Part shown: in pieces, positions 3,661 through 24,000 of the stretch
Position numbering within the stretch: the first letter of the stretch is position 1
How the letters are laid out: the number at the start of each line of letters is the position of its first letter
Assembly: GCA_023261485.1 (NCBI GenBank)
Contig: JAHFOY010000011.1
Span: forward strand, 6,763 to 30,762
Reading direction: 5' to 3'
DNA length: 24,000 nucleotides
Source of the DNA: Planctomycetota bacterium
Lineage (GTDB): Bacteria > Planctomycetota > Brocadiia > Brocadiales > Brocadiaceae
The notes under the pieces: generated by a model
Told to the model about the DNA's origin: nothing
Seen by the model: the letters and a program-made list of their open reading frames with translations, nothing else
Databases searched by the model: none
Position numbers and translations under genes: made by a program

Positions 3661-3707
3661 TATGTTCAGTCATTTAGCCACGAATGAACACGAAGTTGTG
3701 GTTAAAA

Positions 3708-6626: not shown

Positions 6627-6751
6627 CCCTCAGATTTATTAATAACCTGTGACAACCCTATGCCCATGTAAACCCACCCACAATATGAACCCATCACCAC
6701 CGTCACATAAATCACTCGCGAGGCTAATTCTAAGAAATTTATTCCCGTAAA

Positions 6752-7417: not shown

Positions 7418-7479
7418 CTAAAAGTAAGAATATCAAAATAATAAGTTTAAAAATACGGAAGATAGGAGGTATGTAGCTC

Positions 7480-8028: not shown

Positions 8029-8285
8029 GATTAGATTTAGGCGCTATTGCGAAGGCTGGTACCAGCAAGGCTAATCAAACCGGGAGTTGGAGGAATTATA
8101 AACCAATATTTCACCAGGTAAAATGTATTGGCTGTGGCCTTTGTAAAATCTATTGTCCCGAAGGTTGTGTTACCATGATAGAAAAAAAGAAATACACGGT
8201 CGATTATACATACTGCAAAGGTTGTGGGATTTGTGCCGAGGAATGCTCTTCAAGCGACATCGAAATGATAGTGGAGGAGAAGTAA
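8025..8285 (+). CDS. porD: 2-oxoacid:ferredoxin oxidoreductase, delta subunit (2x[4Fe-4S] ferredoxin)
   Basis: Two CxxCxxCxxxCP-type motifs are present (CIGCGLCKIYCP and CKGCGICAEEC). It has an ATGA overlap with porG. Confidence 0.85.
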   Translation: MRLDLGAIAKAGTSKANQTGSWRNYKPIFHQVKCIGCGLCKIYCPEGCVTMIEKKKYTVDYTYCKGCGICAEECSSSDIEMIVEEK

Positions 8286-9460: not shown

Positions 9461-9464
9461 ATTC

Positions 9465-10379
9465 ATGTCTACCACAACACTGACTGCCCCGAAGGAACAA
9501 TCATGCACGCTTTTGGCATCAGGCCATACCGCCTGTACCGGATGCGGCGAGGCACTTGCCGCAAAACTCGTACTGGGCGCAGCAGGTTCTGATATAATCG
9601 TAACCGATGCTACAGGATGCCTGGAAGTATTCACTACAAGATTTCCGCAATCATCATGGGAAGTCCCTTTTATCCACTCGTTATTCGAAAATTCGGCTGC
9701 TGTTGCCTCAGGTGTAGAAGTGGCCTTAAAGGCGCTGGGCAGGCAAAATGAGGCAAAGGTTATTGCGCAGGGTGGCGACGGCGGGACGGCAGACATTGGA
9801 TTACAGGCGCTCAGTGGCATGTTAGAAAGGGGACATGATATTCTTTACGTCTGTTACGATAATGAAGCATACATGAATACCGGCGTACAGCGCAGCGGTT
9901 TAACCCCATTTGACTGCATGACGACGACCAGCCCTTGCGGTGAACTTTCCTGGGGAAATAAACACAACAAAAAAGACATGCCCTCCATTGCTGCCGCACA
10001 CGGTATTCCTTACGTTGCAACGGCCTCAGTGGCATTTCCAAAAGACATTGAAAACAAGGTAAAAAAAGCCCTTTCGATAACCGGTCCAAAATATATGCAA
10101 ATCCACTCCCCATGCCCACTCGGATGGAGATCAAATCCTCAACTCACCATCAAAGTAGCTAAATTAGCCGTACAGACGGGACTCTATCCCATCTTCGAAA
10201 TGGAAAACGGCAAGGTAACAAAAGTGAGAAAAGTCACCACTCCAAAAACCCCGGTAGAAGAATATCTGAAAATTCAGGGACGCTTCGCCCATCTCTTCAA
10301 GTCACCGAAGGGAAAGGAAGAGATACAGAAGATACAGGAGATCGCAGACAGAAACGTAGAAAAGTATGGATTGGCATAG
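9465..10379 (+). CDS. porB: 2-oxoacid:ferredoxin oxidoreductase, beta subunit (TPP-binding)
   Basis: GHTACTGCG and [10 protein letters not shown] (TPP-binding GDG) motifs are present. I prefer the ATG at 9465, which has GGAGG upstream, over the TTG at 9447. Confidence 0.85.
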
Positions 10380-10558
10380 AAGCTGTTATTTTAGCTCACC
10401 GCATATTTGTTGCTCATGCAACACCAAGAGGAAAGACTGAACAGTTTTGCCGTAAAATAATTAATTGGGGTAAGCCAGTTTTGACTTCCAATTACAATGA
10501 CAATACCAGACTATTAATATGGGAATAAAGGCTGTCCAACCAGAGGATATATGCTGTA

Positions 10559-11542
10559 TCAGGTAGGCGCTATAAATTCTTTTTCTTGCGTATCGGTATT
10601 TATCAGCTTATTAATGGCGTCCAGCACGGGTTCTGTAGAGTTCTGAAATTTGGCTATGGGATTCACGATCGCAAGGCCACGGTAATATGTAACGAGTCCT
10701 TCTGCAACCTCTGTCATAATTTTGTTAAAGGTATTCCGTTTCTTTGCCCTTGCAAGTTTCACCTCGGGACCTTTATCCCCGGTAATGGGGATTCTTTCAT
10801 AATTGCCAAAATCCATCCGCAGTATATTGATCATACCACCCTGACCAGATAATTGATTGACAATTTCTGCCGAAGGTAACGAGGCGATATATGCTAAAGG
10901 GTAAGTGTAATCTTTGTATCCTTCCTTGTTCACATAAAAATCATTCAGAATACCCAGCGTCTCAAAATACTCTTGCACCCTTGTAAAACATTTTTTATTT
11001 ACCAGCGCCTCCTCTATTTCTTTGACTGGTTTACTTGCAGTTTTTAACTTTCCCAGAATGATGGTGGTAGCAATAGCCCTGTCCTGCTGATAGGTTTTTA
11101 CTTCAATTTGAATGTAATCGCTGCTCACAAACTGCCATAAAAATAGATTACACGTCCTTTCACAGTAAAAAGCAGAACCGGTAAATTTTATGTTTACGGA
11201 GGATATTTCTAATTCTGAAAAGAGGACTTCTAAGGGAAGGATGATCTTCGAAACGGTCATCGCACCGGGAACAATGTTGCCTTTCCGGTGGATGATATTA
11301 TTGTCGTTGGTTACATCAACGAAACGTTCGCCGTGCTGCTTGGAAATTGTATATTCGTGCTTGATTAGAAATTTGTCCCATACCTGCAACCGGCATTCGT
11401 TATGGGAATCATTCTCTAGTATTAAGCCGGGATGCGGCGTGCGCGCCTTTGCATCCCGAAAGCAGATTTTATCGGCCAAAAAACCTTCGACCCGCCTCAT
11501 TGGTATTGAAAATATAGGGGTTTGCGCTCTGCTCATAGACAT
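10559..11542 (-). CDS. Hypothetical protein with an N-terminal MaoC-like/hotdog-fold motif
   Basis: 327-aa ORF. VTNDNNIIHRKGNIVPGAMT resembles the D-x-N-P-I-H...HG motif of MaoC dehydratase-like hotdog domains. I do not recognise the C-terminal half. Confidence 0.5.
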   Translation of the reverse strand: MSMSRAQTPIFSIPMRRVEGFLADKICFRDAKARTPHPGLILENDSHNECRLQVWDKFLIKHEYTISKQHGERFVDVTNDNNIIHRKGNIVPGAMTVSKIILPLEVLFSELEISSVNIKFTGSAFYCERTCNLFLWQFVSSDYIQIEVKTYQQDRAIATTIILGKLKTASKPVKEIEEALVNKKCFTRVQEYFETLGILNDFYVNKEGYKDYTYPLAYIASLPSAEIVNQLSGQGGMINILRMDFGNYERIPITGDKGPEVKLARAKKRNTFNKIMTEVAEGLVTYYRGLAIVNPIAKFQNSTEPVLDAINKLINTDTQEKEFIAPT

Positions 11543-11901
11543 TACCGATAAAAAATTTCATCTTTTTTAATTGTTCTTGATTCTATTACCTGAATTATCT
11601 TATGTCAAGGATATAAAAAAATATTTTAACCTTAATAAAATAAATCGTAAGGTCTTAGGACAACACAATCTATCGGTTGCATAGGTTTGCATAACAAAGA
11701 CATTTCAATGCACTTTTTAACACATAGCAGAGTCACCACTATTCGCCTGGCGGGTATACATTACTTGCCCTTTATTAGCTTGACAAAAATTCGTGGTCTC
11801 AGTATGCTAACCGACATGCAACACATGATGTTTTTGTTAAACATTCATATTTCAATAAGATATAAAAGGCAATCCACTTAAAATTTAAAGGATATTTCCA
11901 A

Positions 11902-13179
11902 GTGCAACAAATCTGTGTATTTGAAGATAGCCAACACTCACAACTCATCCCACTTGTGTATGCAAAGCCGGTGTTTGAACTCCGATGCGGCTTATTTTCC
12001 AATTTGGAAAGAACTGTCAAACACTATCCTGATGCCGCTATTACCCTTTTTTGCAGAAATTACCTATCCGATATATTAAAAGAAAAATACCCTCATCGTG
12101 TTAACACCCTTCATACAACAGACAATGCCTGCCTTTTTTTAAACGGTCGTGCGATTATTTCTCTGCCTGTTCCTTTAGAAGGCCCGGAGGAAATTGGGGT
12201 TCAGGATAATACGCTTGTTTATGCCCGACTCAAAGGAAACAATGTAAAAAAAATATCTCACGAAAAATTTCTTACACCGGACGTCATCGATTTGCTGAAA
12301 GGTACGTTACCGGTGGTTGATACCCATGTACCCATCATCAACTATTTTTGGGATATCATAAAACACAACAAATCTCAAATAGAAAAGGATTTCATGCTAT
12401 TTGTCAAGGAAGGCTCTATTTCCGGAAAATTGTACGAAGGTGTTTATCTTATCAATGAAGACTTGGTATTTATCGGCAAAGGAAGCCGGGTTAAACCGGG
12501 CTGTGTATTTGATGCAGAAAATGGGCCTATTTATATAGGTAATAACGCCTCCATCGCCCCAAATACGACCATTGAAGGACCTGTTTACGTTGGCAACCAT
12601 TCTATAATTCAATCTAATTCGAGAATACGCGGAGGCGCCAACATTGGAGAGGGCTGCAAGGTAGGGGGAGAAATCGTAAATACTATTTTTCACAGTCACA
12701 GCAATAAACAACACGACGGATTCCTCGGTGATTCTTATATCGGCTCATGGATCAATATCGGGGCAGATACCGTAAATAGCAATTTACTTAATACCTATGG
12801 AAATATAAAGGTCGAACTGGGTGGGGATATTATCAATACGAATCACCTGTTCCTTGGTATGGCAATGGGAGACCATACAAAAACAGCCATCAATACAACA
12901 ATTATGACAGGCAGTGTTTTTGGTTTCGCCTGTAATATAATTACACCCGCCTATCCACCAAAATATCTTCCATCTTTTACATGGTATTCAGACAATGGAA
13001 TGAAGGTCTATATATTAGAAAAGGCATTACAGGTAGCAAGGATTGCGATGAAAAGACGGGATAAAGAAATGACCCCAACAGAAGAACAACTCTTTAGAAT
13101 GATATTTCAGCTTACAGAGAAAGAAAGAAATTCCATAAAAATATGGCACAAGCAGGAACTCAAACCTGACAGTTATTAA
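11902..13179 (+). CDS. Sugar nucleotidyltransferase-like protein with a C-terminal left-handed beta-helix (hexapeptide repeats)
   Basis: 425-aa ORF with a GTG start. The C-terminal half carries repeated [LIV]-G-x-x-x-x hexapeptide patterns ([39 protein letters not shown]), as in GlmU/LpxA-type proteins. Confidence 0.7.
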
Positions 13180-13252
13180 CAGAGTAGTCCCACGGCAACA
13201 CCAAGAGTTGCATACGAATTATTTTTGTGGTAAATATAATAAAGGGCATATT

Positions 13253-13852
13253 ATGGAAAAAGACCTCCAACACGAACGAATTATCATTGATACGAGTATT
13301 TTTACCAATCCGGAGATATACCAAACCTTTGGTAATAGTCCCACAGATGCGTTACGCGCATTCTTAGAGATTATCAGCAAATTGGATGGTCCGGCCTTTT
13401 ATATGCCCCCAACAATTTATCATGAGCTGCTGAATTTTGTCGAAATAAAGGATATCCCCGTCGAATTACAAATCCGTATATTTCAAAAACCCCCAAAAAG
13501 GTATGAACTTTCAGTTCCGGCTTTTTTGCTGTATGAACTTATCGAGGATGTGCGTCATAGAATTGACAAGGGTTTACGGGTAGCTGAAGATGCTGTAAGA
13601 GAGACATCCCCTGAAACTGAACCGGAGGCTATTAATAATCTGAGAAAAAAATACCGTTCAGCGCTTCGTGAAGGAATTATTGACAGCAAGGAAGACGTTG
13701 ATCTGATCCTCCTGTCCAAGGAAATGGATGGCATCCTGATAACAGCCGATACAGGTATCGTCAAGTGGGCGGATAAATTAGGTATCCGATACATTGATCC
13801 CCGTATGCTGCGGGGTATCCTGGATAAGTTAATACAGCAAGCCCACAAATAG
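13253..13852 (+). CDS. PIN-like RNA ligase partner protein (MJ_0950-like family, from memory)
   Basis: [42 protein letters not shown]...[15 protein letters not shown] matches my recollection of archaeal RNA-ligase-partner proteins. I prefer the ATG at 13253 to the TTG at 13208. The gene is convergent with the RNA ligase gene, with an 18-nt gap. Confidence 0.65.
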
Positions 13853-13870
13853 TTTGATCACCTTGAAAAA

Positions 13871-15013
13871 CTAATCAACATGGGCTGCGCCGTCCAGGTG
13901 ACTCTGAAGAATTTCATACGAGGCATAACATCTTCTTGCAAACCGGACATGCCAGTAAGCACCTTCTTTCTTTTTTGACAATATCTCGAACTTCACTTTA
14001 CACCTGTGCAGGTGATCAATCATCCTTTGAACATTTTTCTCTTCCCGAAATTTTAAGAGAAATCTTTCGTCGATAAGTTCTCCCCGCGCAGTCTTAGTAA
14101 CACTTTCATACACGGGTTGTAATAACACCTCCCCCAACTGAGCAAAAACTTCCGATTTCAATGACTTGACGTTTTCCTGAATAAACATAGCCGCGCGAAT
14201 AATGCGGTGGGTAAAAAACTCAGACATCATCTCAGCCATCAGCGGGGCAGTAACATGGATATCGCGCAAACAGGATCCTAATGTCACGTACTTCAGGATA
14301 TTTTCGTCAGGATGGGTTGGTTTCATTACGATCCCTTCACATCCCGTCTCATCCAATTCTTTAATAACTTTTTTCAGGGCTGGAATGTCGGAGACTGAAA
14401 ACCGCCCAAATCTCCTGACCGTTGGCATACAATATGTATCAAAGAGTTTGTACCTCTCTTCGACCGGAATACTTTGCGGTTTATCCAACATCATTAAATC
14501 AAAGGCAAAAAATCTGATATCCTCCTTTACATACGGTGGATGTTCAATGTTGTAAGGATTATCGGGGCCGGCAAATTCACCACAAACTATTAACTCCGGA
14601 TAATCATCAAATATCTTTTTTACATCCAAAAAATCCACAATCCGGTCGGTTGAGAAGGGACAGACATAGGCGCCGCGCGAAAAGGCCAGCACGCGGCCTT
14701 GAATGCGTGCAACCCGAATGTTGTAACCATCGACCTTTTCTTCTACGTAAAATGGTTGCGCGTAGGCCTTGTGGATGCCGTTTTCCAGATGCATTATCCG
14801 GGCAATACGCGGAAAATCAAAGAGGATGCCTTCCGGGGTAACGATCGCCCCTTTCCCCAACTCGCCAACCTTTTTCGCCACCCGATAAAAGCAGATACCG
14901 TCGAATTCCTCACGGACAACATCATGCCTGCCAACAGATTCGTCCCATGCGGGCCCAGAAATTCCTACCTGCCTGACTATGTCATATATTTCCATATGCA
15001 CAAACTTTCTCAC
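13871..15013 (-). CDS. ATP-dependent RNA ligase, archaeal Pab1020/Rnl3-like family
   Basis: Nucleotidyltransferase motif I, EEKVDGYNIRV (KxDG), is present. Overall length and downstream motifs (CGEFAG, EGIVMK) fit the Rnl3 type. The track start at 15013 is GTG; an ATG at 14995 is an alternative. Confidence 0.75.
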   Translation of the reverse strand: MRKFVHMEIYDIVRQVGISGPAWDESVGRHDVVREEFDGICFYRVAKKVGELGKGAIVTPEGILFDFPRIARIMHLENGIHKAYAQPFYVEEKVDGYNIRVARIQGRVLAFSRGAYVCPFSTDRIVDFLDVKKIFDDYPELIVCGEFAGPDNPYNIEHPPYVKEDIRFFAFDLMMLDKPQSIPVEERYKLFDTYCMPTVRRFGRFSVSDIPALKKVIKELDETGCEGIVMKPTHPDENILKYVTLGSCLRDIHVTAPLMAEMMSEFFTHRIIRAAMFIQENVKSLKSEVFAQLGEVLLQPVYESVTKTARGELIDERFLLKFREEKNVQRMIDHLHRCKVKFEILSKKKEGAYWHVRFARRCYASYEILQSHLDGAAHVD

Positions 15014-15299
15014 AACACAACCGTGATGGTTACGCTACCAGGTTGAAATACCTCATATAAAAAACTTTGTAAAGGTGATGTTACATAAACCCGTCCTTTG
15101 TTTTCAAGACAAAACTGATGAGCCGTCGAGAATACCTGCCTTAATTACAGCAAACTTTATCTATAACTCTCATATTTACATAAGGTTAAATTTAATGAGC
15201 GTTTTGTTTTTAATATTGACTTCAAAAAGACTCAATCGTATAATGAAATTCCTTTAAATTTTTTAGAGGAAATGAAATGTCTCCAAAAAGGATATTACG

Positions 15300-16769
15300 A
15301 TGTATATAATCCTGGGTTATGATGATATTGGAAATGCATTGGTTCGAAATCTAAGCAAGTCCGGCGAGGAGATATTCGTTATTGACACAGATGAATCTGC
15401 TTTGTTTGGGTTAAAAGAATCCAATCTACATACACATGTAGCGGATATACGTACTTTTGATTTAGGCGCATTACCGGAAAAACACACAATCGCCTTTGTC
15501 CTCTTACAAAAAAACTTTAAAGATAACTTGACATTAGTAAGGCGCATCAAGAAACTATTTCCCGATAAATTCATAGTATCAAGGGCAACCGATGAGAAAG
15601 AGGCTTCTGCATTAATAGAAAATGGCGCGGATCGTGTTGTTCAAACAACCAGAATTATTACAAATACCTTCCTGAGTGAACTGGAGGCAGCAAAAATAAA
15701 AAGGTCTGCTTCTCATTTAGTAAGTGTGATTAAGACAGCAACACGTAAAGGGTTGGCCATTTTTTTACAGGATAACCCGGACCCGGACGCCATCGCTTCC
15801 GGACTTGCATTAAAACGTATTGCTGAAAAATATGATATCCAATCCGGTATTTATTACGGCGGAAACATTGGTTATCGGCAAAATAAAACATTAGTCAATC
15901 TGCTGAAAGCGGACCTCATTCGATTAAAAACAACAGATGAGGCGCAGAAAATAATTAATGCTGCGGATAAGACGGCATTAATAGAAGCGTCTATTCCTTC
16001 AAAAAACAATATATTGCCTGCACATGCAATCCCCAATATTATTATTGATCACCATCAAACTGATTTACACCTTGTAAAGGGGGAATTTATTGAAATAGTG
16101 CCAAAAATTGGAGCCACCTCTACCATTATGACGAGATACATGAGACAACTGGGTATTGTACCTGACTCATCACTTGCCACAGCGCTCCGTTACGGAATCA
16201 GGGTGGATACTGGCGGATTTACGAGAAACACAACTACCGAAGACCTTGAGGCGGCTGCCTATCTCTCGCCGTTAGTGGACGTGGGCCTATTAAAACAAAT
16301 CGAGAACCTTCCTATGAGCGCAGAGACCATTGACATTCTTGGAAAGGCCATTCGAAACCGGGAAGTAAGAGGGCCATATCTGATTTCCTTTGTGGAATAC
16401 ATAACGGATAGGGACGCATTACCACAAGCGGCTGAATTAATGATACAACTGGAGGGTGTCTCTACAGTGCTTGTCTTTGGCATTGACAAAAACAAAGTTC
16501 AACTATCCGCTCGAAGTATAGATTCAAGTGTCAACCTTGCACTATTATTACAAAAGGCGTTTGGATTTATGAATGCCGGAGGTCACGCTAATATGGCAGC
16601 GGGTAGTATAGATTTGGGTACTTTTGGCAATATTAACAATAAGGCATTATCAAGTGTCATTTTTGATACCATACGAAAAAAGTTTTTCACAGCGGCAGGC
16701 GTAGATATCGAAAAGTGGGAAGTTCCAAAGAAACTGGAATTAATGATCAACAACGGTACCAGGAATTAA
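15300..16769 (+). CDS. DHH/DHHA1-family phosphoesterase with an N-terminal Rossmann (TrkA-N-like) domain
   Basis: DHH motif IIIDHHQTD and DHHA1 motif AGGHANMAAG are present. The N-terminus MYIILGYDDIGNAL resembles a GxGxxG-like Rossmann start. Confidence 0.8.
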   Translation: MYIILGYDDIGNALVRNLSKSGEEIFVIDTDESALFGLKESNLHTHVADIRTFDLGALPEKHTIAFVLLQKNFKDNLTLVRRIKKLFPDKFIVSRATDEKEASALIENGADRVVQTTRIITNTFLSELEAAKIKRSASHLVSVIKTATRKGLAIFLQDNPDPDAIASGLALKRIAEKYDIQSGIYYGGNIGYRQNKTLVNLLKADLIRLKTTDEAQKIINAADKTALIEASIPSKNNILPAHAIPNIIIDHHQTDLHLVKGEFIEIVPKIGATSTIMTRYMRQLGIVPDSSLATALRYGIRVDTGGFTRNTTTEDLEAAAYLSPLVDVGLLKQIENLPMSAETIDILGKAIRNREVRGPYLISFVEYITDRDALPQAAELMIQLEGVSTVLVFGIDKNKVQLSARSIDSSVNLALLLQKAFGFMNAGGHANMAAGSIDLGTFGNINNKALSSVIFDTIRKKFFTAAGVDIEKWEVPKKLELMINNGTRN

Positions 16770-16805
16770 ATCGTAATTACCATTTTATAAGTAAGGAGAA
16801 AGATT

Positions 16806-17813
16806 ATGGAAAAAGGTTTTTTAGGTGTGGGTTTGGTAAGTCTTACAATTTTTTTGAGCTCTTGTGTGGCCACTCAGACACAAGTAAAGCAAACAAAAGC
16901 CCCCGAATTACAAGTAGAAGTAAAGGCAGAACCGGCTGCACCCGAAGCCGCTGCTCCTGAAGCTCCAGCACCTGAGGCTGCCGCTCCGGCCGTAGAAGAG
17001 GCAAAACCTGCCGAAGCTACTGTTGCTGAACCTGCTGCTCCTGAAGCTGCCGCACCTGAAGCTCCGGCTGCAGAACCCGCTGCTCCTGAAGCTCCAGCGC
17101 CTGAGGCTGCCGCTCCGGCTGCAGAAGAAGCAAAACCCGCTGAAGCTCCTGCTGCTGTGGTACCGGCCGCTCCTGAAGCTCCAGCGCCTGAGGCTGCCGC
17201 TCCGGCTGCAGAAGAAGCAAAACCTGTTGAAGCTCCTGCTGCTGTGGTACCGGCCGCTCCTGAAGCTCCAGCGCCTGAGGCTGCCGCTCCGGCTGCAGAA
17301 GAAGCAAAACCGGCAGAAGAAGCTGTAAAACCCGAGGAGAAAAAGACAAAGGCTTTGCCTTCAGAAAAAGAGGAATCTAAGGCCGAGGCTTTACATCAAT
17401 GTGCCACTTGCAATAAAGAAGTTGGAGAAGGACACGTCTGCGGCGTTACAACGTATTGTCAACAATGCAAGGAAGAAGTTGGCGCTGGTCATATCTGCGA
17501 TTTGACATTCTTTTGCCACGATTGCAAAAAAGAGGTCGGAGATGGCCACGTCTGCAACGTAACGACTTTTTGTCCTAAATGTGAAGAAGAAGTCGGGGCA
17601 GGCCACATCTGCGACGTAACTTATTTCTGCTACGATTGCGAGAAAGAGGTGGGTGACGAACATATCTGCGGCGTCACCCATTTTTGTCCCACCTGCAAGG
17701 CAGAAGTTGGGGAAGGACACGAATGCGGAAAGACGTTCTTCTGCTTTGACTGTGAGAAAGAGGTAGCCAAGGATCATCAACACGAAAAGGCAGCCGAAAA
17801 ACCTGCAAAGTAA
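16806..17813 (+). CDS. Lipoprotein with a Pro/Ala/Glu-rich tandem-repeat linker and seven C-terminal CxxC-x7-HxC repeats
   Basis: The signal peptide carries a lipobox (LTIFLSSC). It is followed by PEAAAPEAPAPEAAAPAAEEAKPAEA repeats and then a 19-aa unit, CxxCxxEVGxGHxCxxTxF, repeated seven times (the last copy is degenerate). A strong terminator lies 29 nt downstream. Confidence 0.85.
   Translation: MEKGFLGVGLVSLTIFLSSCVATQTQVKQTKAPELQVEVKAEPAAPEAAAPEAPAPEAAAPAVEEAKPAEATVAEPAAPEAAAPEAPAAEPAAPEAPAPEAAAPAAEEAKPAEAPAAVVPAAPEAPAPEAAAPAAEEAKPVEAPAAVVPAAPEAPAPEAAAPAAEEAKPAEEAVKPEEKKTKALPSEKEESKAEALHQCATCNKEVGEGHVCGVTTYCQQCKEEVGAGHICDLTFFCHDCKKEVGDGHVCNVTTFCPKCEEEVGAGHICDVTYFCYDCEKEVGDEHICGVTHFCPTCKAEVGEGHECGKTFFCFDCEKEVAKDHQHEKAAEKPAK
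16930..17330 (+). repeat. Tandem 87-bp coding repeat (about 3 near-identical copies at 17079-17320 plus one diverged upstream copy)
   Basis: taccggccgctcctgaagctccagcgcctgaggctgccgctccggctgcagaagaagcaaaacc recurs with a period of 87 nt (for example 17161 versus 17248). It encodes the 29-aa unit PAAPEAPAPEAAAPAAEEAKPxEAPAAVV. Confidence 0.85.
17400..17798 (+). repeat. Seven tandem 57-bp coding units, each encoding a Cys2-His-Cys motif
   Basis: Protein-level period of 19 aa: CATCNKEVGEGHVCGVTTY / CQQCKEEVGAGHICDLTFF / CHDCKKEVGDGHVCNVTTF / CPKCEEEVGAGHICDVTYF / CYDCEKEVGDEHICGVTHF / CPTCKAEVGEGHECGKTFF / CFDCEKEVAKDHQHEKAAE. Confidence 0.85.
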
Positions 17814-17999: not shown

Positions 18000-19190
18000 C
18001 TAATTTTTGCTAAAAAATCGTAGTATTCTCTGAAATTTCCTCAGTGCAACCCTTAGGCGCAGGGTACTCTGTCTTCCTTGTTCAATCCCTTCCATGCGCG
18101 CTATGACCTCTCTGGCAGGAGCTACGACGCGTAAAATAAATTTTATTCTTTTCTGCCACCCGGAAATGTTAGAAAAGTAAAAAAAATAGCAAAGATTTTC
18201 CTTTCGCTTACCCTGCCTGAGCAATCTGGAGAAAATCCTTTCTCCCAACCCTTTGCGCCGAGGATAGAGGGTTTCCAAGACTTCACGAGGTACACTGGCG
18301 CCAAAATATTCTTTGCTCAACCATAAACTATAAAACAAAGGCCTTCTCAATTGAAACTCCTCTGCCTCATTGCAAAGCTTTTCCCAATCTAATTTTTCTT
18401 TCCAATGGTTTATCACCCGGTGTATATCCCATACGTGGATTAGCAGATTGTAAGAATGCCTCATGGCATGTTCTGAGAGGTGAAGGAGTTGATGATGGAG
18501 GGCGAGGCACAGCGCATCTGCCTGTCGTATCTTTAAGGGAACTGCCTCCTTCCACAGCTTATCCGCATTAATTTTTTCTGCATAAATATAATTAGGAAGC
18601 GCATCATTAACCCAGTGCCAGTGCAGATGCAGGAAAAGCGGAGAACCCCTTTTCCTGTATAACTGACTGTTATAACAGTTAGATACCCGGAAAGAATCCA
18701 ATCGGACAAAAGACCGATACCCTAATTGGGACAGAACTTTATCAAGCTGCGGAACCTCTGCTGGTTTTACAAGGATGTCTACATCGCCCAGTCCGCGAAT
18801 CCCGAAGTCCTCATACACAGAGGAGAGGAGGGATGCCCCTTTCAAGATGATAATAGGATTATCCAGCATCCGGAGTAAAGCAGCCAATTCTTCAAGGATG
18901 CGGACATTTCTCCCCCAATTATTTATGTATTCCTTTTTGAGTTGTGCTCTAATTGGCGGAGGCATGTCAATCCCCCTCTTTATCAGGCCTTTGTAAAGGA
19001 GGAAAGAAAGCCCTTCTTTTTGGGAGACGCTTAACGCCTCTGTCCAGGAAGGCGAAATAGTTACATTATAGGAGGGATTTAATACCTGCGAGATGAATTT
19101 CAGGGCTTCGTTTCGCCCGGTCTCGTTTGAACATAGCGTGGCGCAGGCCGACTGGAACATATTCTCAAATTTACCCTGTGTTTCTAACAT
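18000..19190 (-). CDS. Nucleotidyltransferase-family protein (resembles the uncharacterised NTP_transf_5-type family found in RiPP clusters)
   Basis: 396-aa ORF. LKGASLLSSVYEDFGIRGLGDVDILV carries the G-x-GDxD-type nucleotidyltransferase motif. It lies directly downstream of, and on the same strand as, the rSAM/PqqD cassette. Confidence 0.65.
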   Translation of the reverse strand: MLETQGKFENMFQSACATLCSNETGRNEALKFISQVLNPSYNVTISPSWTEALSVSQKEGLSFLLYKGLIKRGIDMPPPIRAQLKKEYINNWGRNVRILEELAALLRMLDNPIIILKGASLLSSVYEDFGIRGLGDVDILVKPAEVPQLDKVLSQLGYRSFVRLDSFRVSNCYNSQLYRKRGSPLFLHLHWHWVNDALPNYIYAEKINADKLWKEAVPLKIRQADALCLALHHQLLHLSEHAMRHSYNLLIHVWDIHRVINHWKEKLDWEKLCNEAEEFQLRRPLFYSLWLSKEYFGASVPREVLETLYPRRKGLGERIFSRLLRQGKRKENLCYFFYFSNISGWQKRIKFILRVVAPAREVIARMEGIEQGRQSTLRLRVALRKFQRILRFFSKN

Positions 19191-19288
19191 TCGAGGATGT
19201 ATGCACTATATGTGTTTTTCATGTATCAGTAGAATACCCCATAAAATCTTGCTGTGAATAAACCAAAAACAGATTAGGCCTTCGGCAA

Positions 19289-19358
19289 CTTTTCAATGTA
19301 GAGCGAAGAGACCCTTCGCTCTACAAACCGCATAAATAAAATGAATCCTATACAATCA
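19289..19358 (-). repeat. Copy B of the ~70-nt dispersed hairpin element (partner at 2573..2643)
   Basis: The reverse complement reads tgattgtataggattcattttatttatgcggtttgtagagcgaagggtctcttcgctctacattgaaaag, with the hairpin at 19298..19324. The element overlaps the last three codons and the TAG stop of the rSAM gene 19348..20448, and it coincides with the GC-content switch. Confidence 0.85.
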
Positions 19359-20448
19359 GGTTGTCTGCCCGCGCGTGAGCGACCTGGCAGAAGTACGGAG
19401 TGGCGCCATCCAGCTCGCCGGTCTCCAGGTGCGCGTGGGCTGGGCACCACAGGCACAGGTTCACCAGAGGGCAGCTTCGGCAGGAATCAAGATATTCCTT
19501 GCGATGCGACCTCATATCCAGGACGCGGGGGACGAAATTAAACCAGGCATCGGCCAGATTGCCTTTCCGCAGGTCGTAGACCGTATTTGCCTGGCAGAGG
19601 GACGAGCAGAGGCGGAACGTGCCGTCGTAACCGACGTTAAAACTGCCGTTCCCTGCGCCGCAATGGAATAGATGATCGCACCCCTGGTGCGTGAATTCGT
19701 CATTAATGAGCGTGCTGCAGTTCTGCTGCATGGATTTCATCCGCTCCCCGTCCGCCCGTTCCAGGGCCACGACCTCCCGGGGCGTCAACCGTTCTGCATT
19801 TATCTCCCCGTTTCGCATCGGGTCGCCGTCATAACGCAGGTGAAGCTGGGGGTCGAAGCGGGAATAGTCCTTCGTTTTCTCACGGCAGAATGCCGCTATG
19901 GCGCCCTGCTCGGCCAGGTTGGACCGTATCGCAATTGCCTTGAGGCGGACCCGCACGCCGTTATTCATCAGCATATTCAGGCCGTTCATGAACATGCCGA
20001 ATGAGCCTGGTTTCCGGGTTACGCGCTCGTAGGTCTTCCGCGTTACACCGTAGACAGTAACCTCCACGTCTCGTGGCGGGTATTTCCTGAACAGAGCCAC
20101 ATGTCCTTCGTTTATCATCGTGGCGTTGGTGAATACGGAGACCAGCAGCCCCTTGCGCCTGAGCATGAGGTATATCTCCGGGAAATCTGGACGGATCAGC
20201 GGCTCGCCGCCGGTGATCAGGCACCACATGGCGCCGAGCTTGGCCGCCTGTTCCGCAATATCGCCAATTTCTGCGACGGTCAGTTCCCGTTCGCGGGCTG
20301 CCTTGTCGCCTTCGGGCAGGTTAATGTAGCAATGGCGGCAGTCGTTGTCGCACCGCGCCGTCACCTCGATATCAAAAGAGAGCGGTACACGCTTATCCCT
20401 CAATTTGTCCCAGAGAGAAAACTGCTGGATTTCGATGGTGCTGGTCAT
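19348..20448 (-). CDS. Radical SAM/SPASM-domain peptide maturase (PqqE-like), paralogue 1
   Basis: CDNDCRHC (CxxxCxxC) lies near the N-terminus. The C-terminal SPASM region is HCGAGNGSFNVGYDGTFRLC ... CRSCPLVNLCLWCPAHA. AAGGAG sits 6 nt upstream of the ATG at 20448. Confidence 0.9.
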   Translation of the reverse strand: MTSTIEIQQFSLWDKLRDKRVPLSFDIEVTARCDNDCRHCYINLPEGDKAARERELTVAEIGDIAEQAAKLGAMWCLITGGEPLIRPDFPEIYLMLRRKGLLVSVFTNATMINEGHVALFRKYPPRDVEVTVYGVTRKTYERVTRKPGSFGMFMNGLNMLMNNGVRVRLKAIAIRSNLAEQGAIAAFCREKTKDYSRFDPQLHLRYDGDPMRNGEINAERLTPREVVALERADGERMKSMQQNCSTLINDEFTHQGCDHLFHCGAGNGSFNVGYDGTFRLCSSLCQANTVYDLRKGNLADAWFNFVPRVLDMRSHRKEYLDSCRSCPLVNLCLWCPAHAHLETGELDGATPYFCQVAHARADNLIV

Positions 20449-21280
20449 TATAACTCCTTACTATGATCTTTGCCGCCTGTCGCTGAAGGGCATCGTCCAG
20501 TCCCATCCCGCGATAGCGTAAGCGCACGTGCGATTCTTCAATGCCCCATACATCTCCTGCGGCGCGCGCAAACGTTGTCCATGCAGCGGGATCGCGGCCA
20601 TCGTTCATGTGCAGCGCCAACGTCCAACGATCTATGATTCGGCCCTTCCACTCCATACTGGGATCGAAGTCGTCCGGCGCAAATGGACGGTATACCGCAT
20701 CTCCAAGCGTTCTGTTCAGCAGAACTCGGACGGTATATAAAATACGCGGCCTCAGGAGCGAGAAACAACAGCGCGCAATCGTCCCATACGGCGACATGTC
20801 CTGTACGCGTGCTAGTATGCGCACCAGCCACAAACGCAAACGCTGTTTCGTGTCCGTTAAAATCAGGCGCGCTGCGTAATACCGGCGCACTAGCCAGGGA
20901 TACCTTGCCGGCCGCAGCGGCACGGGCTTCCCTCTGCGCTCAATGGCAATGACAATGCCGAGCAGGTCTTCGTTAAAGGTAGGACCGTCGCTCCCTTCAT
21001 TTGCGCGGTCGGGCCTGGTGATGACATAATCTCTTCCATCGCACCTGCCCTTGCCGACGACGCGATGTCCGAACAGAAAACCCTCTCCGCGACATACCGC
21101 GATATCGCCCACCGAAACATCGCCGGCTGCCCGTGACTGAATCTTCACAACATCGCCCTGGCGAACGGTGGGATACATGCACGCCCCCCACACGCGAAAG
21201 GTAATGCCATCGCGGTCAGCCAGCGCCCGTCCGATTCGGAGGGAAGCCAGGATGAGACTATTGTTTTTTTTGACTGGCAA
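20393..21280 (-). CDS. S24/S26-fold (signal-peptidase/SipW-like) peptidase-like protein with an unknown C-terminal domain
   Basis: The N-terminal ~110 aa align by eye to SPase I boxes: WGACMYPTVRQGDVV (versus SGSMEPT...GD), FGHRVVG (versus the HRV of ER/archaeal-type SPases), and ITRPDRANEGSDGP...LLGIV. The ORF overlaps pqqD by 23 nt and rSAM-1 by 56 nt. Confidence 0.6.
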   Translation of the reverse strand: MPVKKNNSLILASLRIGRALADRDGITFRVWGACMYPTVRQGDVVKIQSRAAGDVSVGDIAVCRGEGFLFGHRVVGKGRCDGRDYVITRPDRANEGSDGPTFNEDLLGIVIAIERRGKPVPLRPARYPWLVRRYYAARLILTDTKQRLRLWLVRILARVQDMSPYGTIARCCFSLLRPRILYTVRVLLNRTLGDAVYRPFAPDDFDPSMEWKGRIIDRWTLALHMNDGRDPAAWTTFARAAGDVWGIEESHVRLRYRGMGLDDALQRQAAKIIVRSYNDQHHRNPAVFSLGQIEG

Positions 21281-21572
21281 CGAGGATGCCCCTCCTCACC
21301 ATCTCGCCCGCAAAGCCAAGGGCATCGTTTTCAATCTCATGGAGCGGCGTGTCGAACTCGGCAACCAGCGCTGTTGCCACATCCTTCAGCGTCCGATGCC
21401 CGTCCAGCTTCTGCCAGATGGCCTGGCCTGTATCGTTCAGGGTATAAAGTTCATCATCCGCATCCCCGATCCCGGCGACCAGCGGGACGATTATGATCTC
21501 GCCTTCAATCTCCCGCGCTACCACATCATCGGACGGGAAGCATACTGCATCGAGAGTAATATCCGTTTCCAT
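21258..21572 (-). CDS. PqqD-family protein (RiPP recognition element)
   Basis: 104-aa ORF. VVAREIEGEIIIVPL...LYTLNDTGQAIWQKLDGHRTLKDVATALVAEFDTPLHEIENDALGFAGEMVRRGILV is a textbook PqqD/RRE pattern. GGAGG sits 8 nt upstream of the ATG. Confidence 0.85.
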   Translation of the reverse strand: METDITLDAVCFPSDDVVAREIEGEIIIVPLVAGIGDADDELYTLNDTGQAIWQKLDGHRTLKDVATALVAEFDTPLHEIENDALGFAGEMVRRGILVASQKKQ

Positions 21573-21590
21573 AAAAACAACCTCCGTTCA

Positions 21591-21613
21591 TTTGACGTTC
21601 AGGAATTTCAAAC
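21591..21613 (+). repeat. 23-nt motif, copy 3 (tttgacgttcaggaatttcaaac), inverted relative to copies 1 and 2
   Basis: It matches 20 of 23 positions of the reverse complement of 22082..22104. It ends about 19 nt upstream of the PqqD start codon, in operon direction. Confidence 0.7.
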
Positions 21614-21803
21614 ACCCCCCATCATCCCTTTCTCGCGGATATCTCAGGGTTCGACTTTACTCACCGCAAGCGCGAAAAGGACAACGGATCAAGGGCAGAA
21701 TGCCTAAGCTTGCATACTGTGTCACAATATATTCAACCGGCCATATATAGCATAATCAATTTGCATAATACAATATTTGTATTGAAACCCTGCTGAAAAT
21801 TAA

Positions 21804-21983
21804 TTATGACAGAACCTGTGCGCTGCAGTTATTGGTGCAAGCATTGTTATTCCTACACGCACTATTTTTGTTACTTGGCCCGGTGCCCCCAATACTCGAC
21901 TTACAAGCCACCAAGACATCCTCTTCCGGTTTGTTTCTCACCAGAACAATCAGTTCCGGTTTACGCCATTCTTTTTTTTGCAT
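21804..21983 (-). CDS. Candidate RiPP precursor peptide, 59 aa (not in the supplied ORF track)
   Basis: Manual reverse-complement translation gives MQKKEWRKPELIVLVRNKPEEDVLVACKSSIGGTGPSNKNSACRNNNACTNNCSAQVLS*. AAGGAGG lies 7 nt upstream of the ATG. It shares the strand of the flanking maturase genes, sits between rSAM-2 and PqqD, and has a charged leader followed by a Cys/Asn-rich C-terminus. Confidence 0.7.
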   Translation of the reverse strand: MQKKEWRKPELIVLVRNKPEEDVLVACKSSIGGTGPSNKNSACRNNNACTNNCSAQVLS

Positions 21984-21990
21984 ATAGACA

Positions 21991-21995
21991 CCTCC
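21991..21995 (-). promoter_or_regulatory. Shine-Dalgarno sequence of the candidate precursor gene
   Basis: The minus strand reads aaaaaGGAGGtgtctatATG, a core GGAGG with a 7-nt spacer. Confidence 0.6.
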
Positions 21996-22081
21996 TTTTT
22001 TTAACTTTTTACGCCACTAAGGCAACAAGGCACAAAGAGACACACTCCTAACCCCCTCTTTTTGGAGGGGAATCAAAAAAA

Positions 22082-22104
22082 GTTTGAAATTCCTGTACAT
22101 TAAA
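22082..22104 (+). repeat. 23-nt motif, copy 1 (gtttgaaattcctgtacattaaa)
   Basis: It is similar to copy 2 at 22237..22259 and inverted relative to copy 3 at 21591..21613. A hairpin follows directly. Confidence 0.7.
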
Positions 22105-22108
22105 CTAG

Positions 22109-22144
22109 GTTGGGTTTTAAAAGACAAAACCCAACTACTTTTTT
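22109..22144 (+). terminator. Hairpin plus T-run, a terminator-like element for plus-strand (antisense) transcription
   Basis: gttgggtttt-aaaagac-aaaacccaac is followed by tactttttt. On the minus (operon) strand no U-run follows the same hairpin. Confidence 0.45.
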
Positions 22145-22147
22145 ACC

Positions 22148-22210
22148 CACCCCTAAATCCCCTCCCAAGAGGGGACTTCTTAAATTCCCCTCTTGAGAGG
22201 GGTAGGGGTG
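22148..22210. other. Predicted three-way-junction-like structure: outer stem cacccct/aggggtg enclosing two cccctc-N4-gagggg hairpins
   Basis: Hairpins lie at 22159..22174 (loop ccaa) and 22187..22202 (loop ttga), with outer pairing 22148-54 to 22204-10. A third cccctc/gagggg hairpin lies at 22053..22070. Confidence 0.5.
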
Positions 22211-22236
22211 TGTTTATCCATTACATATTTTAAAAA

Positions 22237-22259
22237 GATTGAAATTCCTATGCATTAAA
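22237..22259 (+). repeat. 23-nt motif, copy 2 (gattgaaattcctatgcattaaa)
   Basis: It is a direct repeat of copy 1 with four mismatches. The hairpin gctgc-cttcg-gcagc (22264..22278) and the string aactatttt follow it. Confidence 0.65.
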
Positions 22260-22330
22260 TTAGGCTGCCTTCGGCAGCAACTATTTTCCTCCCGTCAATC
22301 CCGAAGTGTTTAATCGGGAATCCATAAGGC

Positions 22331-23494
22331 TTATCTGCCTCTCACCCTTTCCCGCCAATCCTTCACCTCCCATCCGTGTTCATTCTCCCCAAGCCATCCC
22401 ATGAACCGCGCCTGGGCATGCGCCACGTCGCACAGGTACTCTACCGGCGTGTCCAGAGTACCGTGCTCTGTCCACGACTTGGCGGGGCACTGCTCGCACA
22501 TGCCTTTCAGGAAACAGCGGGCGCATCGGCAGAGATATTCAGGGTTCGTAGCCCGTATCTCGCGGAGGCGGGAGAAGCCGTCAAGCGCCTTTTGCAGGGG
22601 CGAACGTCCGTTCGCTCCCACCCTTACAACGTCTGACATCAGCTCCGGGGCGCGGACACCCATGCAGGGCTGCGCCCTTCCGTATGCGTCTATGTTCACC
22701 CCATTGCCTGCGCCGCAGGCGAACAGACTGTCTCCTTGTGGCCCCATGAACTTCGATGCGAACCCGGACATGTCCTTTCGGTATCCCGCCTCGTCCCGAG
22801 TCAGCGCCGAAATCCCATCCAGGGGAGATATGCGCAGCGATTTTATCTGTTTGTTCTTCTCCTCATTGTCACGGCTGTTGCGGAGATCGAAGAACATGGA
22901 GTATTGCGGGGGCTTTGTCATCCAGGGGATGGTCATGGCCCATTCTTCAAACTCTTCTATCTCCGCCCTGTTCTGCGGAAGGAGGGCCGACTTGACGACA
23001 AAAGGAATCCCGTGCTCCAGCAGTAGCTGAATGCCCGTCCAGCACTGATCAAAGGAGCCTGGCGAGCGGGTAGCCGCCTCGTAAGACTCCTCATGCATGC
23101 CGTATACGGTGATCTCGATGGCCACTTTTGGAGGGATGCGGGCAAGCAAGCCGGCCAGCCGCTCGTTGATGAGGCGGGCGTTGGTGAAGAGGAGGACCTT
23201 GATCCCCAACCTCCGCGCATAGAGGTACAGATCCTCGAAATCCGGCCTCAAAAGCGGCTCTCCACCGGTGAAGCGGACCTGCATGCACCCCAGATCTGCG
23301 GCCTGCTTCAGGATATCCTTCACCTGCTCCGTGGTCATCTCGCGCCTGCGCGTATTCTGGTCGTCTGAGGGAAGATTGATGCAGCAGTGGACACAGTCGT
23401 TGTTGCACCGCTCCGTCAACTCCATATCCAGGCTCCCCAGCCGCGGGAGGATCGGCTTTGGCTGTTGCTTTACCCGTCTGACAAATTCGCTCAT
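22331..23494 (-). CDS. Radical SAM/SPASM-domain peptide maturase (PqqE-like), paralogue 2
   Basis: CNNDCVHC (CxxxCxxC) is present. The SPASM region is ACGAGNGVNIDAYGRAQPC ... CRCARCFLKGMCEQCPAKSW. Its C-terminal YLCDVAHAQA parallels YFCQVAHARA of paralogue 1. Confidence 0.9.
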   Translation of the reverse strand: MSEFVRRVKQQPKPILPRLGSLDMELTERCNNDCVHCCINLPSDDQNTRRREMTTEQVKDILKQAADLGCMQVRFTGGEPLLRPDFEDLYLYARRLGIKVLLFTNARLINERLAGLLARIPPKVAIEITVYGMHEESYEAATRSPGSFDQCWTGIQLLLEHGIPFVVKSALLPQNRAEIEEFEEWAMTIPWMTKPPQYSMFFDLRNSRDNEEKNKQIKSLRISPLDGISALTRDEAGYRKDMSGFASKFMGPQGDSLFACGAGNGVNIDAYGRAQPCMGVRAPELMSDVVRVGANGRSPLQKALDGFSRLREIRATNPEYLCRCARCFLKGMCEQCPAKSWTEHGTLDTPVEYLCDVAHAQARFMGWLGENEHGWEVKDWRERVRGR

Positions 23495-23533
23495 TACTGA
23501 TCCTTTTTCTATTCTATATCCTTCGCTTTCTTC

Positions 23534-24000
23534 CTATCCTGCCTGTGCGAGCTTTTCCAACTCAGGCACTATTACCCCGCTCCTGTCGAACCGCATGGTA
23601 TAACATGGCGCTTCGTTCACGATCTGCTCCAGCACGTCCATCACCTTCTGCCACCACTCCGCTGTCACCATCGGCTTGATGAGGGTCGCCAGCAAACGCT
23701 TCCAGATATCCTTCCGGTCGGTCAGGGGAAGGATATCGTTCTGCAGGCTCTGCTCCAGAAAGAGGATCGCACGAAGAGGGGCTGAAGCGCCGGAGACGTC
23801 GGACACATCGCCGTGGCTCCATGTGCCGTGGACGCGGAAACCTTCATCCCACCGCCTGACAATGTTGCGGTCATCGCAGAGTATCTCGATTTTTATGGAC
23901 GAATGGCCATTCGCCTCTACGGCGGCGTTTTTCAATAGCGTTACCGTTGTAGACTTCCCTGCCTCGGAATGGCCGACAAAGAGGAGTCCCTGTCCGTTCA
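23534..24000 (-). CDS. HPr-kinase-like P-loop protein, C-terminal part (N-terminus lies beyond the window end)
   Basis: The reading frame stays open upstream of the track's TTG start. My manual translation of 23936-24000 gives ...NGQGLLFVGHSEAGKSTTVTL-LKNAAVEANG..., a GxSxxGKST Walker A as in the HprK/P C-terminal domain and RiPP-associated HprK-like kinases. Confidence 0.7.
   Translation of the reverse strand, partial: NGQGLLFVGHSEAGKSTTVTLLKNAAVEANGHSSIKIEILCDDRNIVRRWDEGFRVHGTWSHGDVSDVSGASAPLRAILFLEQSLQNDILPLTDRKDIWKRLLATLIKPMVTAEWWQKVMDVLEQIVNEAPCYTMRFDRSGVIVPELEKLAQAG

Follow-up and report, generated by a model that had tools for sequence, protein, structure and literature searches.

A conserved small gene in a Planctomycetota contig probably encodes the precursor of a widespread radical-SAM-modified peptide family with predicted cysteine cross-links and a predicted C-terminal serine modification

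In a 24,000-nucleotide stretch of DNA from a Planctomycetota bacterium (NCBI GenBank assembly GCA_023261485.1, contig JAHFOY010000011.1, positions 6,763 to 30,762 of the forward strand; the whole stretch is referred to here as the window), an open reading frame (ORF) of 59 codons is found at positions 21804 to 21983 on the minus strand, in a cluster whose other genes all lie on that strand too. An earlier reading of this DNA from its letters alone (the sequence-only reading) had proposed that the ORF specifies a precursor peptide that is guided by a PqqD protein and modified by radical S-adenosylmethionine (rSAM) enzymes. We find that the ORF is a real gene under selection at the protein level. 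Moreover, it is probably the precursor of a widespread, uncharacterized family of rSAM-modified RiPPs (peptides that are made ribosomally and modified after translation) in which, judging from sequence patterns and by analogy, cysteines would be cross-linked and a C-terminal serine would be modified. The features of the cluster are as follows.

21804..21983, minus strand: precursor peptide gene, 59 aa plus stop, MQKKEWRKPELIVLVRNKPEEDVLVACKSSIGGTGPSNKNSACRNNNACTNNCSAQVLS (sequence read directly; homologues; purifying selection)
21991..21997, minus strand: Shine-Dalgarno sequence AAGGAGG, then a 7-nt spacer and the ATG at 21981-21983 (sequence read directly)
22331..23494, minus strand: rSAM/SPASM enzyme 1, 387 aa (Pfam Radical_SAM, 91 bits; CX3CX2C plus seven-Cys SPASM motif)
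23534..24000, minus strand: C-terminal 154 of the 679 aa of an rSAM/SPASM-ScmC fusion, cut by the window end (full length in loci L001 and L034, in the latter at 7922-9961)
21258..21572, minus strand: PqqD-family protein, 104 aa, presumed RiPP recognition element (RRE) or peptide chaperone (Pfam PqqD, 54 bits against a cut-off of 23.4)
20393..21280, minus strand: two-domain protein, 295 aa, candidate leader peptidase (S24/S26 fold plus GNAT-like domain)
19348..20448, minus strand: rSAM/SPASM enzyme 2, 366 aa (Pfam Radical_SAM, 77 bits; full Cys motifs)
18000..19190, minus strand: NTP_transf_5 (PF14907) protein of nucleotidyltransferase fold, 396 aa (Pfam, 152 bits; motif G-L-G-D-V-D)

The ORF is present just as it had been described, with the same 59-residue translation, with AAGGAGG 7 nt before its ATG (at 21991-21997) and with the motifs NSAC (residues 40-43), NNAC (46-49) and TNNC (50-53). 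The NCBI gene calls contain no gene here (those for contig DBJWYM010000004.1 of assembly GCA_052360605.1 omit the ORF), but a different gene caller, on an ENA contig with the same peptide, includes it. The claim that an open frame of this kind was unlikely to arise by chance did not stand: when the 758-nt spacer at 21573-22330 was shuffled, 745 of 2000 shuffles (37%) contained an ATG-initiated ORF of 59 aa or more, and the precursor ORF shares its position with an overlapping antisense ORF of 81 aa. Thus, the length of the ORF together with its Shine-Dalgarno sequence is not, by itself, evidence of a gene. (The G+C content of the ORF is 45% and that of the surrounding intergenic stretch about 41%.) Promoter and terminator scans and RNA folding of the spacers around the ORF gave nothing above shuffles, and Pfam and NCBIfam scans of the peptide gave nothing significant, with no precursor model among the matches.

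The evidence that the ORF is a gene comes instead from its conservation. A protein search found 13 homologues whose N-terminal halves are almost identical, a degenerate-pattern scan of one genome per species found 28 genome loci with related peptides, and a profile run against 1.84 billion representative proteins gave 3,023 matches at E<=1e-3 (498 of them at E<=1e-10), these homologues being representatives of clusters at 50% identity. Codon analysis of a 20-codon leader block (P-E-L-I-V-L-V-R-x-x-P-E-E-x-V-L-x-x-C-K) in 45 distinct DNA versions gave a proportion of synonymous differences (pS) of 0.67, which is near saturation, and a proportion of non-synonymous differences (pN) of 0.13 (pN/pS 0.20), and two to five codons are used for each invariant residue of the block. 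Because the amino acids are conserved while synonymous change is near saturation, and because there are 3,023 homologues, the ORF is a gene; the sequence-only reading had named synonymous changes no commoner than non-synonymous ones as a sign to the contrary, and what we found was conservation at the protein level. That the ORF might be a chance frame, or untranslated spacer between operon genes, would agree with the 37% of shuffles and with the omission from the NCBI calls. The amino-acid conservation across phyla, the thousands of homologues, the conserved position of the ORF within the cluster and its consensus Shine-Dalgarno sequence all contradict this explanation, and we regard it as refuted by the conservation data, with practically no chance of being correct.

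Comparison with a 99%-identical cluster (L001) revealed seven substitutions in the 180 nt of the ORF, all of them non-synonymous and all of them in the core (residue changes I31A, T34A, K39R, N51S and N52S), and the surrounding ~7 kb differs by about 1%. This is the pattern expected of a diversifying core.

The rules that characterize the peptide family were drawn from 52 peptides from the loci together with 127-147 representatives. The parts of the window peptide to which they apply are the following.

21906..21983, minus strand: conserved leader, residues 1-26, presumed PqqD/RRE-binding segment (near-invariant alignment columns; codon analysis)
21900..21905, minus strand: Cys27-Lys28, leader/core boundary (Cys in 100% and Lys in 99% of 147 representatives)
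21855..21881, minus strand: G35-P36-x3-N40-x2-C43, candidate i-3 thioether site (family motif G-P-x4-[N/D/Y/A/H/Q]-x2-Cys around the second Cys, Cys2; cross-link predicted)
21825..21839, minus strand: C49-x3-C53 pair, CTNNC (gap of the last two Cys across the family)
21807..21827, minus strand: C53-x5-S59(COOH), six residues after the last Cys, with Ser at the end

The leader consensus, K-K-E-W-x-x-P-E-L-I-V-L-V-R-x-K-P-E-E-x-V-L, is near-invariant up to residue 26. Given this conserved leader, a hypervariable Cys-containing core, a position between rSAM/SPASM genes and a PqqD gene adjoining downstream, the proposal of a PqqD-guided, rSAM-modified precursor holds, with its chemistry as a prediction. 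The sequence-only reading had placed the end of the leader at Gly32-Gly33. This Gly-Gly is not conserved in the family, and a C39 peptidase was seen neither in the window nor in any locus with a gene listing, so that Gly32-Gly33 is an unsupported leader end and a double-glycine leader was rejected. Three regularities had been passed over: the invariance of Cys27-Lys28 (Cys27 had been put in the leader), the C-terminal C-x5-Ser/Thr rule, and the presence of kinase-like, nucleotidyltransferase and peptidase genes.

Within the core, Cys2 (Cys43 in the window peptide) follows Cys27 by 13-18 residues, most often 15, and is preceded by Gly at -8 in 78% and by Pro at -7 in 65% of the peptides. Position -3 of Cys2 is the most constrained of the variable core positions (Kullback-Leibler divergence of 1.17 bits); family-wide it is occupied by N (34%), Y (11%), D (10%), A (9%), H (7%) and Q (7%), hardly ever by G, S, T, P, V or I, and Asn is enriched 4.6-fold. 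N-x-x-C-R is found at Cys43 in 10/10 peptides of the window's own subfamily. The gap between the last two cysteines, in peptides with at least four, is three residues in 77/110 and two residues in 27/110. The last Cys is followed by a tail of exactly six residues in 50 of the 52 locus peptides and in 120 of 127 representatives (about 95%), and the tail ends in Ser in roughly 90% and in Thr in roughly 10% of cases (Ser in 49/52 and 112/127; Ser and Thr together 97-100%). The remaining core positions are hypervariable, with an abundance of Gly, Ser, Thr, Asn and Ala.

These patterns bear directly on the three (N/T)xxC cross-link sites that had been suggested for the core, the first of which (N40-C43) fits the family pattern and the second and third of which are not conserved. 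In the closest relatives the corresponding positions read TSNC, LSGC, TVVC and SSFC, and CTGSC, CGGSC and CFSSC, and there is no enrichment of Asn or Thr at -3 of Cys3 or Cys4 among 131-147 representatives. The earlier scheme taken whole, with Gly32-Gly33 as the end of the leader and with beta-thioethers at NSAC, NNAC and TNNC, from each Cys to its -3 residue, formed by either or both of two rSAM enzymes, draws on the finding that NxxcB forms a Cys-Asn beta-thioether at NxxC (PMC9389541), on the occurrence of all three motifs in the window peptide and in P0001, and on the family-wide constraint at -3 of Cys43. The scheme is nevertheless very unlikely to be correct, in view of the loss of motifs two and three in the nearest relatives, the unconserved Gly-Gly without a C39 peptidase, the three rSAM domains of the cluster, and the lack of any role in it for the highly conserved Cys27 and C-terminal Ser.

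The two rSAM enzymes of that scheme are an undercount, the third rSAM domain being the one fused to ScmC and cut by the window end. All three domains carry CX3CX2C and a complete seven-Cys SPASM motif, and they are 27-38% identical to one another. (Note that enzyme 2 scores 18.6 bits with the Pfam SPASM model, against a cut-off of 21.5.) The number of rSAM domains in a cluster tracks the number of cysteines in its peptides. Loci with two rSAM genes and a standalone ScmC (L018 from Bacillota, L025 from Actinomycetota and L032 from a delta proteobacterium) have 3-Cys peptides only (4/4), whereas loci with the rSAM-ScmC fusion, and hence three rSAM domains, have peptides with at least four Cys in 17/19 cases; by our own count the covariation has a Fisher p of ~0.002 in a sample of few loci that are probably not independent. 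In both types of cluster, 3-Cys with two rSAM domains and 4-Cys with three, the number of rSAM domains equals the number of cysteines minus one, and the 3-Cys peptides retain the Cys at -6 from the C-terminus. The covariation points to the cysteines as the sites of rSAM action, with one enzyme for each site. The difference of one fits a ring between Cys53 and Ser59, but it also fits Cys27 being an unmodified residue of the leader.

It could be argued that the cysteines form disulfides or bind metal rather than donate cross-links, and that the rSAM enzymes carry out some other backbone or side-chain chemistry, such as epimerization or the formation of C-C or C-O links. These enzymes are without a close characterized relative, which would allow for such chemistry, and four cysteines can pair as two disulfides. 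Set against this, the core is hypervariable beyond its cysteines, the G-P and the C-terminal Ser, leaving no other conserved target residue; the number of cysteines follows that of the rSAM domains; 3-Cys peptides cannot pair fully; and the hosts are anaerobes that presumably have a reducing cytoplasm. We judge this alternative decidedly unlikely.

The domain fused to the third rSAM enzyme offers a candidate explanation for the C-terminal Ser. In the window it is a P-loop domain of the HPr kinase (HPrK)/phosphoenolpyruvate carboxykinase (PEPCK) fold with the motifs GHSEAGKST, ILCDDR and GTWSHG, and the precomputed Pfam label of the fusion protein is PF27840 'ScmC'. An alignment of 33 ScmC sequences showed G-H-S-x-A-G-K-S-T, I-L-C-D-D-R and G-T-W-S-H-G to be invariant or nearly so; the His of GHSxAGKST is present in more than 90% of sequences, and its Lys and the Asp-Asp of CDDR are invariant, which, going by the published description, fits the His-Lys-Asp-Asp motif on which the HPrK-like kinases of lasso peptide pathways depend (PMC9266682; PMC6993621). 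In the AlphaFold (AF2) model of ScmC the mean predicted local distance difference test score (pLDDT) is 83, and all 50 Foldseek matches to the PDB at E<=1e-3 are PEP carboxykinases or HPr kinase/phosphorylases. A PDB sequence search with ScmC found P-loop or remote matches only. The HPr-kinase/PEPCK fold of ScmC and its conserved His, Lys and Asp-Asp suggest, by analogy, that it phosphorylates the C-terminal Ser, as occurs in paeninodin-type lasso peptides.

The precedent is a specific one. The HPrK-like kinases PadeK, ThcoK, SyanK and PsmK act on the linear lasso precursor, whose 'extremely conserved' C-terminal Ser they phosphorylate, and PsmN, an 'uncharacterized NTP transferase', adds hexose to that Ser phosphate (PMC9266682; PMC6993621). 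We therefore see in the window cluster a matching set: a kinase-fold domain, a substrate that ends in Ser, and a gene of nucleotidyltransferase fold. Genes for NTP_transf_5 proteins are found in five related clusters (L002, L012, L018, L021 and L032), where identity is 26-32%; the match in L023 is weaker, at 22%.

The exact spacing of the C-terminus admits a further reading, in which ScmC phosphorylates the C-terminal Ser/Thr, elimination produces dehydroalanine or dehydrobutyrine, and addition of the Cys located six residues upstream closes a lanthionine-type ring, leaving the rSAM enzymes only the remaining cysteines. That spacing, kept in about 95% of peptides, the interchangeability of Ser and Thr at the terminus, the kinase fold of ScmC, and the count of rSAM domains as cysteines minus one in both cluster types would all be in keeping with such a ring, and the beta-thioethers of lanthipeptides do come from activated Ser/Thr (PMC9389541). 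On the other hand, no lyase or cyclase homologue (LanC-like or similar) was detected among the cluster genes, the product of those HPrK-like RiPP kinases that have been studied is a stable phosphoserine (PMC9266682), the count is explained equally well by an unmodified Cys27 in the leader, and the reading is inferential throughout. We consider it unlikely.

The gene next to the precursor encodes the PqqD-family protein, which is well above the Pfam cut-off, although its scores with the NCBIfam PqqD models are below theirs. The 295-aa protein encoded beyond it has, in its AF2 model (pLDDT 88), an N-terminal domain that Foldseek matches to SEC11A/C, LexA and SipA and a C-terminal domain with weak similarity to GNAT acetyltransferases. 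Its homologues bear the database names 'signal peptidase I', 'S24/S26 family peptidase' and 'GNAT', and its score with TIGR02228 is 36.9 against a cut-off of 51.85. The Ser nucleophile of S26 signal peptidases is absent from this protein; Cys34, invariant in 31/31 aligned sequences, stands in G-T-C-M-Y-P-T at the nucleophile position of the G-x-S-M-x-P box, and the Ser occurs in one distant homologue (L025). His72-Arg73, the SEC11/archaeal-type HR box, is invariant in 35/35 sequences. An S26-type fold with an invariant Cys and His-Arg makes the protein a candidate leader peptidase, and sequence and model together fit an active Cys-His peptidase. Note that the NCBI calls shorten this gene to 143 aa (L034, 12671-13102), whereas the 295-aa form, which starts at TTG, is covered to at least 90% by most of 78 homologues and by all of the top 20. 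Because the 295-aa ORF overlaps both of its neighbors, PqqD by 23 nt and enzyme 2 by 56 nt, the peptidase-GNAT gene appears to be translationally coupled to them.

The conserved gene set comprises the rSAM/SPASM-ScmC fusion, an rSAM/SPASM enzyme, one or more precursors, PqqD, the S26-like peptidase-GNAT protein, a further rSAM/SPASM enzyme and, often, NTP_transf_5. It is found in at least seven phyla: Chloroflexota, Desulfobacterota, Bacillota, Actinomycetota, Coprothermobacterota and Aminicenantes, plus Methanospirillum. The order of its genes is repeated in metagenome-assembled genomes that carry the labels Anaerolineae/Chloroflexi; Desulfomonilia, Smithella and Geobacter; Bacillota/Eubacteriales; Thermoleophilia/Actinomycetota; Coprothermobacterota; Aminicenantes; and Methanospirillum. 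Many loci have two to six paralogous precursors (six in L012, and three each in L006 and L002). In several loci, including L007, L008, L011, L013, L016, L017 and L027 among those listed, the distance from precursor genes to any cluster enzyme exceeds 10 kb, and in one Eubacteriales genome the precursors are spread over four separate loci and three contigs. The cluster genes of the window have a G+C content of 55-59% in a chromosome of 41% (18000-24000 compared with 1-17000), which suggests that the cluster was acquired horizontally; its flanks encode ordinary functions of an anaerobe.

Several further features accompany the cluster in the window or in related loci. One lies in the spacer between enzyme 1 and the precursor, outside the system proper:

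22051..22281: hairpin-rich insertion of 231 nt, absent from the 99%-identical cluster L001

The insertion is rich in hairpins of the CCCCTC...GAGGGG type, and L001 has instead about 110 extra nt near the position that corresponds to 21620 of the window; both look like small mobile palindromic elements. A 570-aa ATP-binding cassette transporter, with no peptidase domain or C39 match listed, follows NTP_transf_5 in a related cluster (L002, 8107-9819; L003, 6260-7972). Directly upstream of the rSAM-ScmC gene in L034 (4686-7854) are two genes with HD/HD_5 domains and a gene for a TniB-like AAA protein; an HD_5 gene also flanks the distant cluster L004 (14364-15590), its HD domain being 35-37% identical, and could encode a phosphohydrolase or a signalling partner.

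Elsewhere in the window, a 43-nt palindromic element (TGTAGAGCGAAG...CTTCGCTCTACA) occurs in two copies, at 2606-2648 and at 19284-19326, that are 88% complementary to each other; the second copy sits between the stop of enzyme 2 and the start of NTP_transf_5, and the element may be a terminator or a repeat like the repetitive extragenic palindromic (REP) kind. On the strand opposite to that of the cluster, a 335-aa lipoprotein-like ORF (16806-17813, plus strand; lipobox LSSC) contains six tandem repeats of about 87-100 nt that are rich in Pro, Glu and Ala, followed by eight C-x2-C-x2-E-V-G-x-G-H-x-C repeats; its product may bind metal. In the flanking chromosome, a gene for a Pab1020-type RNA ligase (RNA_ligase plus Lig_C; 13871-15013, minus strand) adjoins one for a TrkA_N-DHH-DHHA1 protein (15300-16769).

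We suggest the following order of events for the pathway. PqqD would bind the leader through W-x-x-P-E-L-I-V-L-V-R...P-E-E-x-V-L and offer the core to the enzymes. Of the three rSAM/SPASM domains, which are paralogous, each would work on a single Cys, most likely by making a thioether cross-link, with Cys43 linked to the residue three upstream, Asn40, and with the ScmC-fused domain taking the extra Cys of the C49-x3-C53 pair. ScmC would recognize and phosphorylate Ser59, as PadeK, ThcoK and PsmK do on lasso precursors, and the fixed distance of six residues between the last Cys and the Ser would result from a ruler that the fusion enzyme sets or, alternatively, from a lanthionine-type ring between Cys53 and Ser59 formed after elimination of the phosphate. 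NTP_transf_5 may then decorate the phosphoserine, as PsmN does, and the Cys-His variant of an S26-type peptidase would cut the leader off near Cys27-Lys28. Taken in its full detail, this would be a distinct class of RiPP, with three rSAM/SPASM paralogues each making one Cys cross-link; a fused HPr-kinase-fold domain phosphorylating the C-terminal Ser/Thr, possibly followed by glycosylation, nucleotidylation or ring closure; a fusion serving as a molecular ruler by which the last Cys is held exactly six residues from the C-terminus; and a Cys-His variant of the signal-peptidase fold removing the leader. We advance this full version tentatively, as a possibility short of what we would call probable.

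A number of observations weigh against our interpretation of the ORF as a modified precursor of this kind. We infer every modification step from sequence patterns and from analogy. The best NCBIfam matches of the rSAM enzymes (AhbD, StsB, ScmE/F, NirJ and MftC) are all far below their cut-offs, the best scores being 80-100 bits against cut-offs of 265-850, and their best PDB sequence matches, at E values from 1e-13 to 1e-5, are remote only. Since the enzymes are related only remotely to characterized ones, thioether formation is a guess from the cysteines being the sole conserved residues of the core, and the preference at -3 of Cys2 might stem from a turn or cap motif and not from a cross-link acceptor. 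The covariation of rSAM and Cys number carries the limit of its sample, given above. For ScmC, the Foldseek TM-scores are modest, at 0.3-0.5, and by sequence only its P-loop matches HprK-related kinase B (HprK_rel_B), with an E value of 0.012. NTP_transf_5 is poorly conserved (mostly 26-32% identity, as compared with 51-72% for the full-length rSAM and PqqD genes), has a G+C content of 44% as against 55-59% for the rest of the cluster, and is missing from some clusters, such as L004; in light of its G+C content and its low conservation between loci it may have been recruited separately. Finally, the window shows neither a transporter gene nor one for immunity.

The family is very large, with 3,023 clusters at 50% identity in many anaerobic bacterial phyla and at least one methanogen, and we found no paper on it in the literature searched (subscription journals lay outside the search). 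Its sequence rules, namely Cys-Lys, G-P plus [N/D/Y...]-x2-C, CxxxC and C-x5-Ser/Thr-COOH, make concrete experiments possible for enzymes whose chemistry homology cannot predict, and the link between rSAM and Cys number, in suggesting one enzyme per cross-link, would make the system easy to dissect. A module of kinase and nucleotidyltransferase hitherto known from lasso peptides seems to have been taken up by an rSAM pathway; if this is true, C-terminal serine tailoring is portable between classes of RiPP.

The nearest curated system is SynChlorMet (SCM; ScmC TIGR04249, ScmD TIGR04248, ScmE TIGR04250 and ScmF TIGR04251), which has been defined bioinformatically and is uncharacterized. Both systems have a P-loop protein of the ScmC type, a relative of PqqD and paired rSAM/SPASM enzymes, and SCM models are among the best NCBIfam matches for every component of the window cluster. 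The scores, however, are 34.5 against a cut-off of 125 for ScmC, 29.3 against 100 for ScmD, 77-91 against 400 for ScmE and 68-97 against 400 for ScmF, and sub-cut-off scores hold likewise for family members from four phyla. Since no component comes near its cut-off, either in the window or in these members, the family is not SCM. It differs also in that its ScmC is usually fused to a third rSAM domain and in the addition of the peptidase-GNAT protein and NTP_transf_5. Membership in SCM, ACGX, GeoRSP, mycofactocin or PQQ was rejected, with all scores far below the cut-offs.

Kinase-tailored lasso peptides (paeninodin, with PadeA/PadeK; ThcoK; SyanK; pseudomycoidin, with PsmK/PsmN) resemble the window system in having an HPrK-type kinase, a PqqD-like RRE and a C-terminal Ser, and kinase-type lasso clusters often hold a gene for an uncharacterized nucleotidyltransferase (PMC9266682; PMC6993621). 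The likeness of ScmC to the lasso kinases is at the level of fold and motif only. The sole NCBIfam hint for the leader is the paeninodin leader model NF033524, which covers residues 3-13 (KKEWRKPELIV) at an E value of 0.26, below significance, and is hit by 9/17 peptides. The window family differs in being without the cyclase (C) and the B2 protease and in having three rSAM/SPASM domains and a Cys-rich core in their place. Neither an Asn-synthetase-like C protein nor a B2 cysteine protease was found in the window cluster or in related loci, and identity as a lasso peptide was rejected.

With the streptococcal RaS-RiPP system NxxcA/NxxcB (Cys-Asn beta-thioether), the shared feature is an Asn three residues upstream of a Cys beside rSAM/SPASM enzymes. 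NxxcB tolerates Asn, Ala, Gln and Asp as acceptor (PMC9389541), and the spectrum at -3 of Cys2, which is dominated by residues with an unbranched beta-carbon, resembles this tolerance. The resemblance extends to one motif only; there are differences in leader, in hosts (environmental anaerobes here) and in accessory genes, and the NCBIfam matches of the window rSAM enzymes give no sign of specific homology to NxxcB, the top matches being other families at sub-cut-off scores. Sactipeptide and ranthipeptide systems (AlbA, SkfB, StsB, PapB and CteB) likewise have rSAM/SPASM enzymes and an RRE acting on Cys-containing cores, and StsB and SkfB are among the distant matches, but at ~60-84 bits against cut-offs of 625-850. 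In those systems one enzyme makes all links, whereas the window cluster has three paralogous enzymes, apparently one per Cys, and the window family has in addition the C-terminal Ser rule and the kinase domain. Sactipeptides, ranthipeptides and NxxC peptides are thus like the window system in enzyme class only. Among rSAM-modified RiPPs, the window family stands out by its unusual combination of enzymes and its sharp sequence rules.

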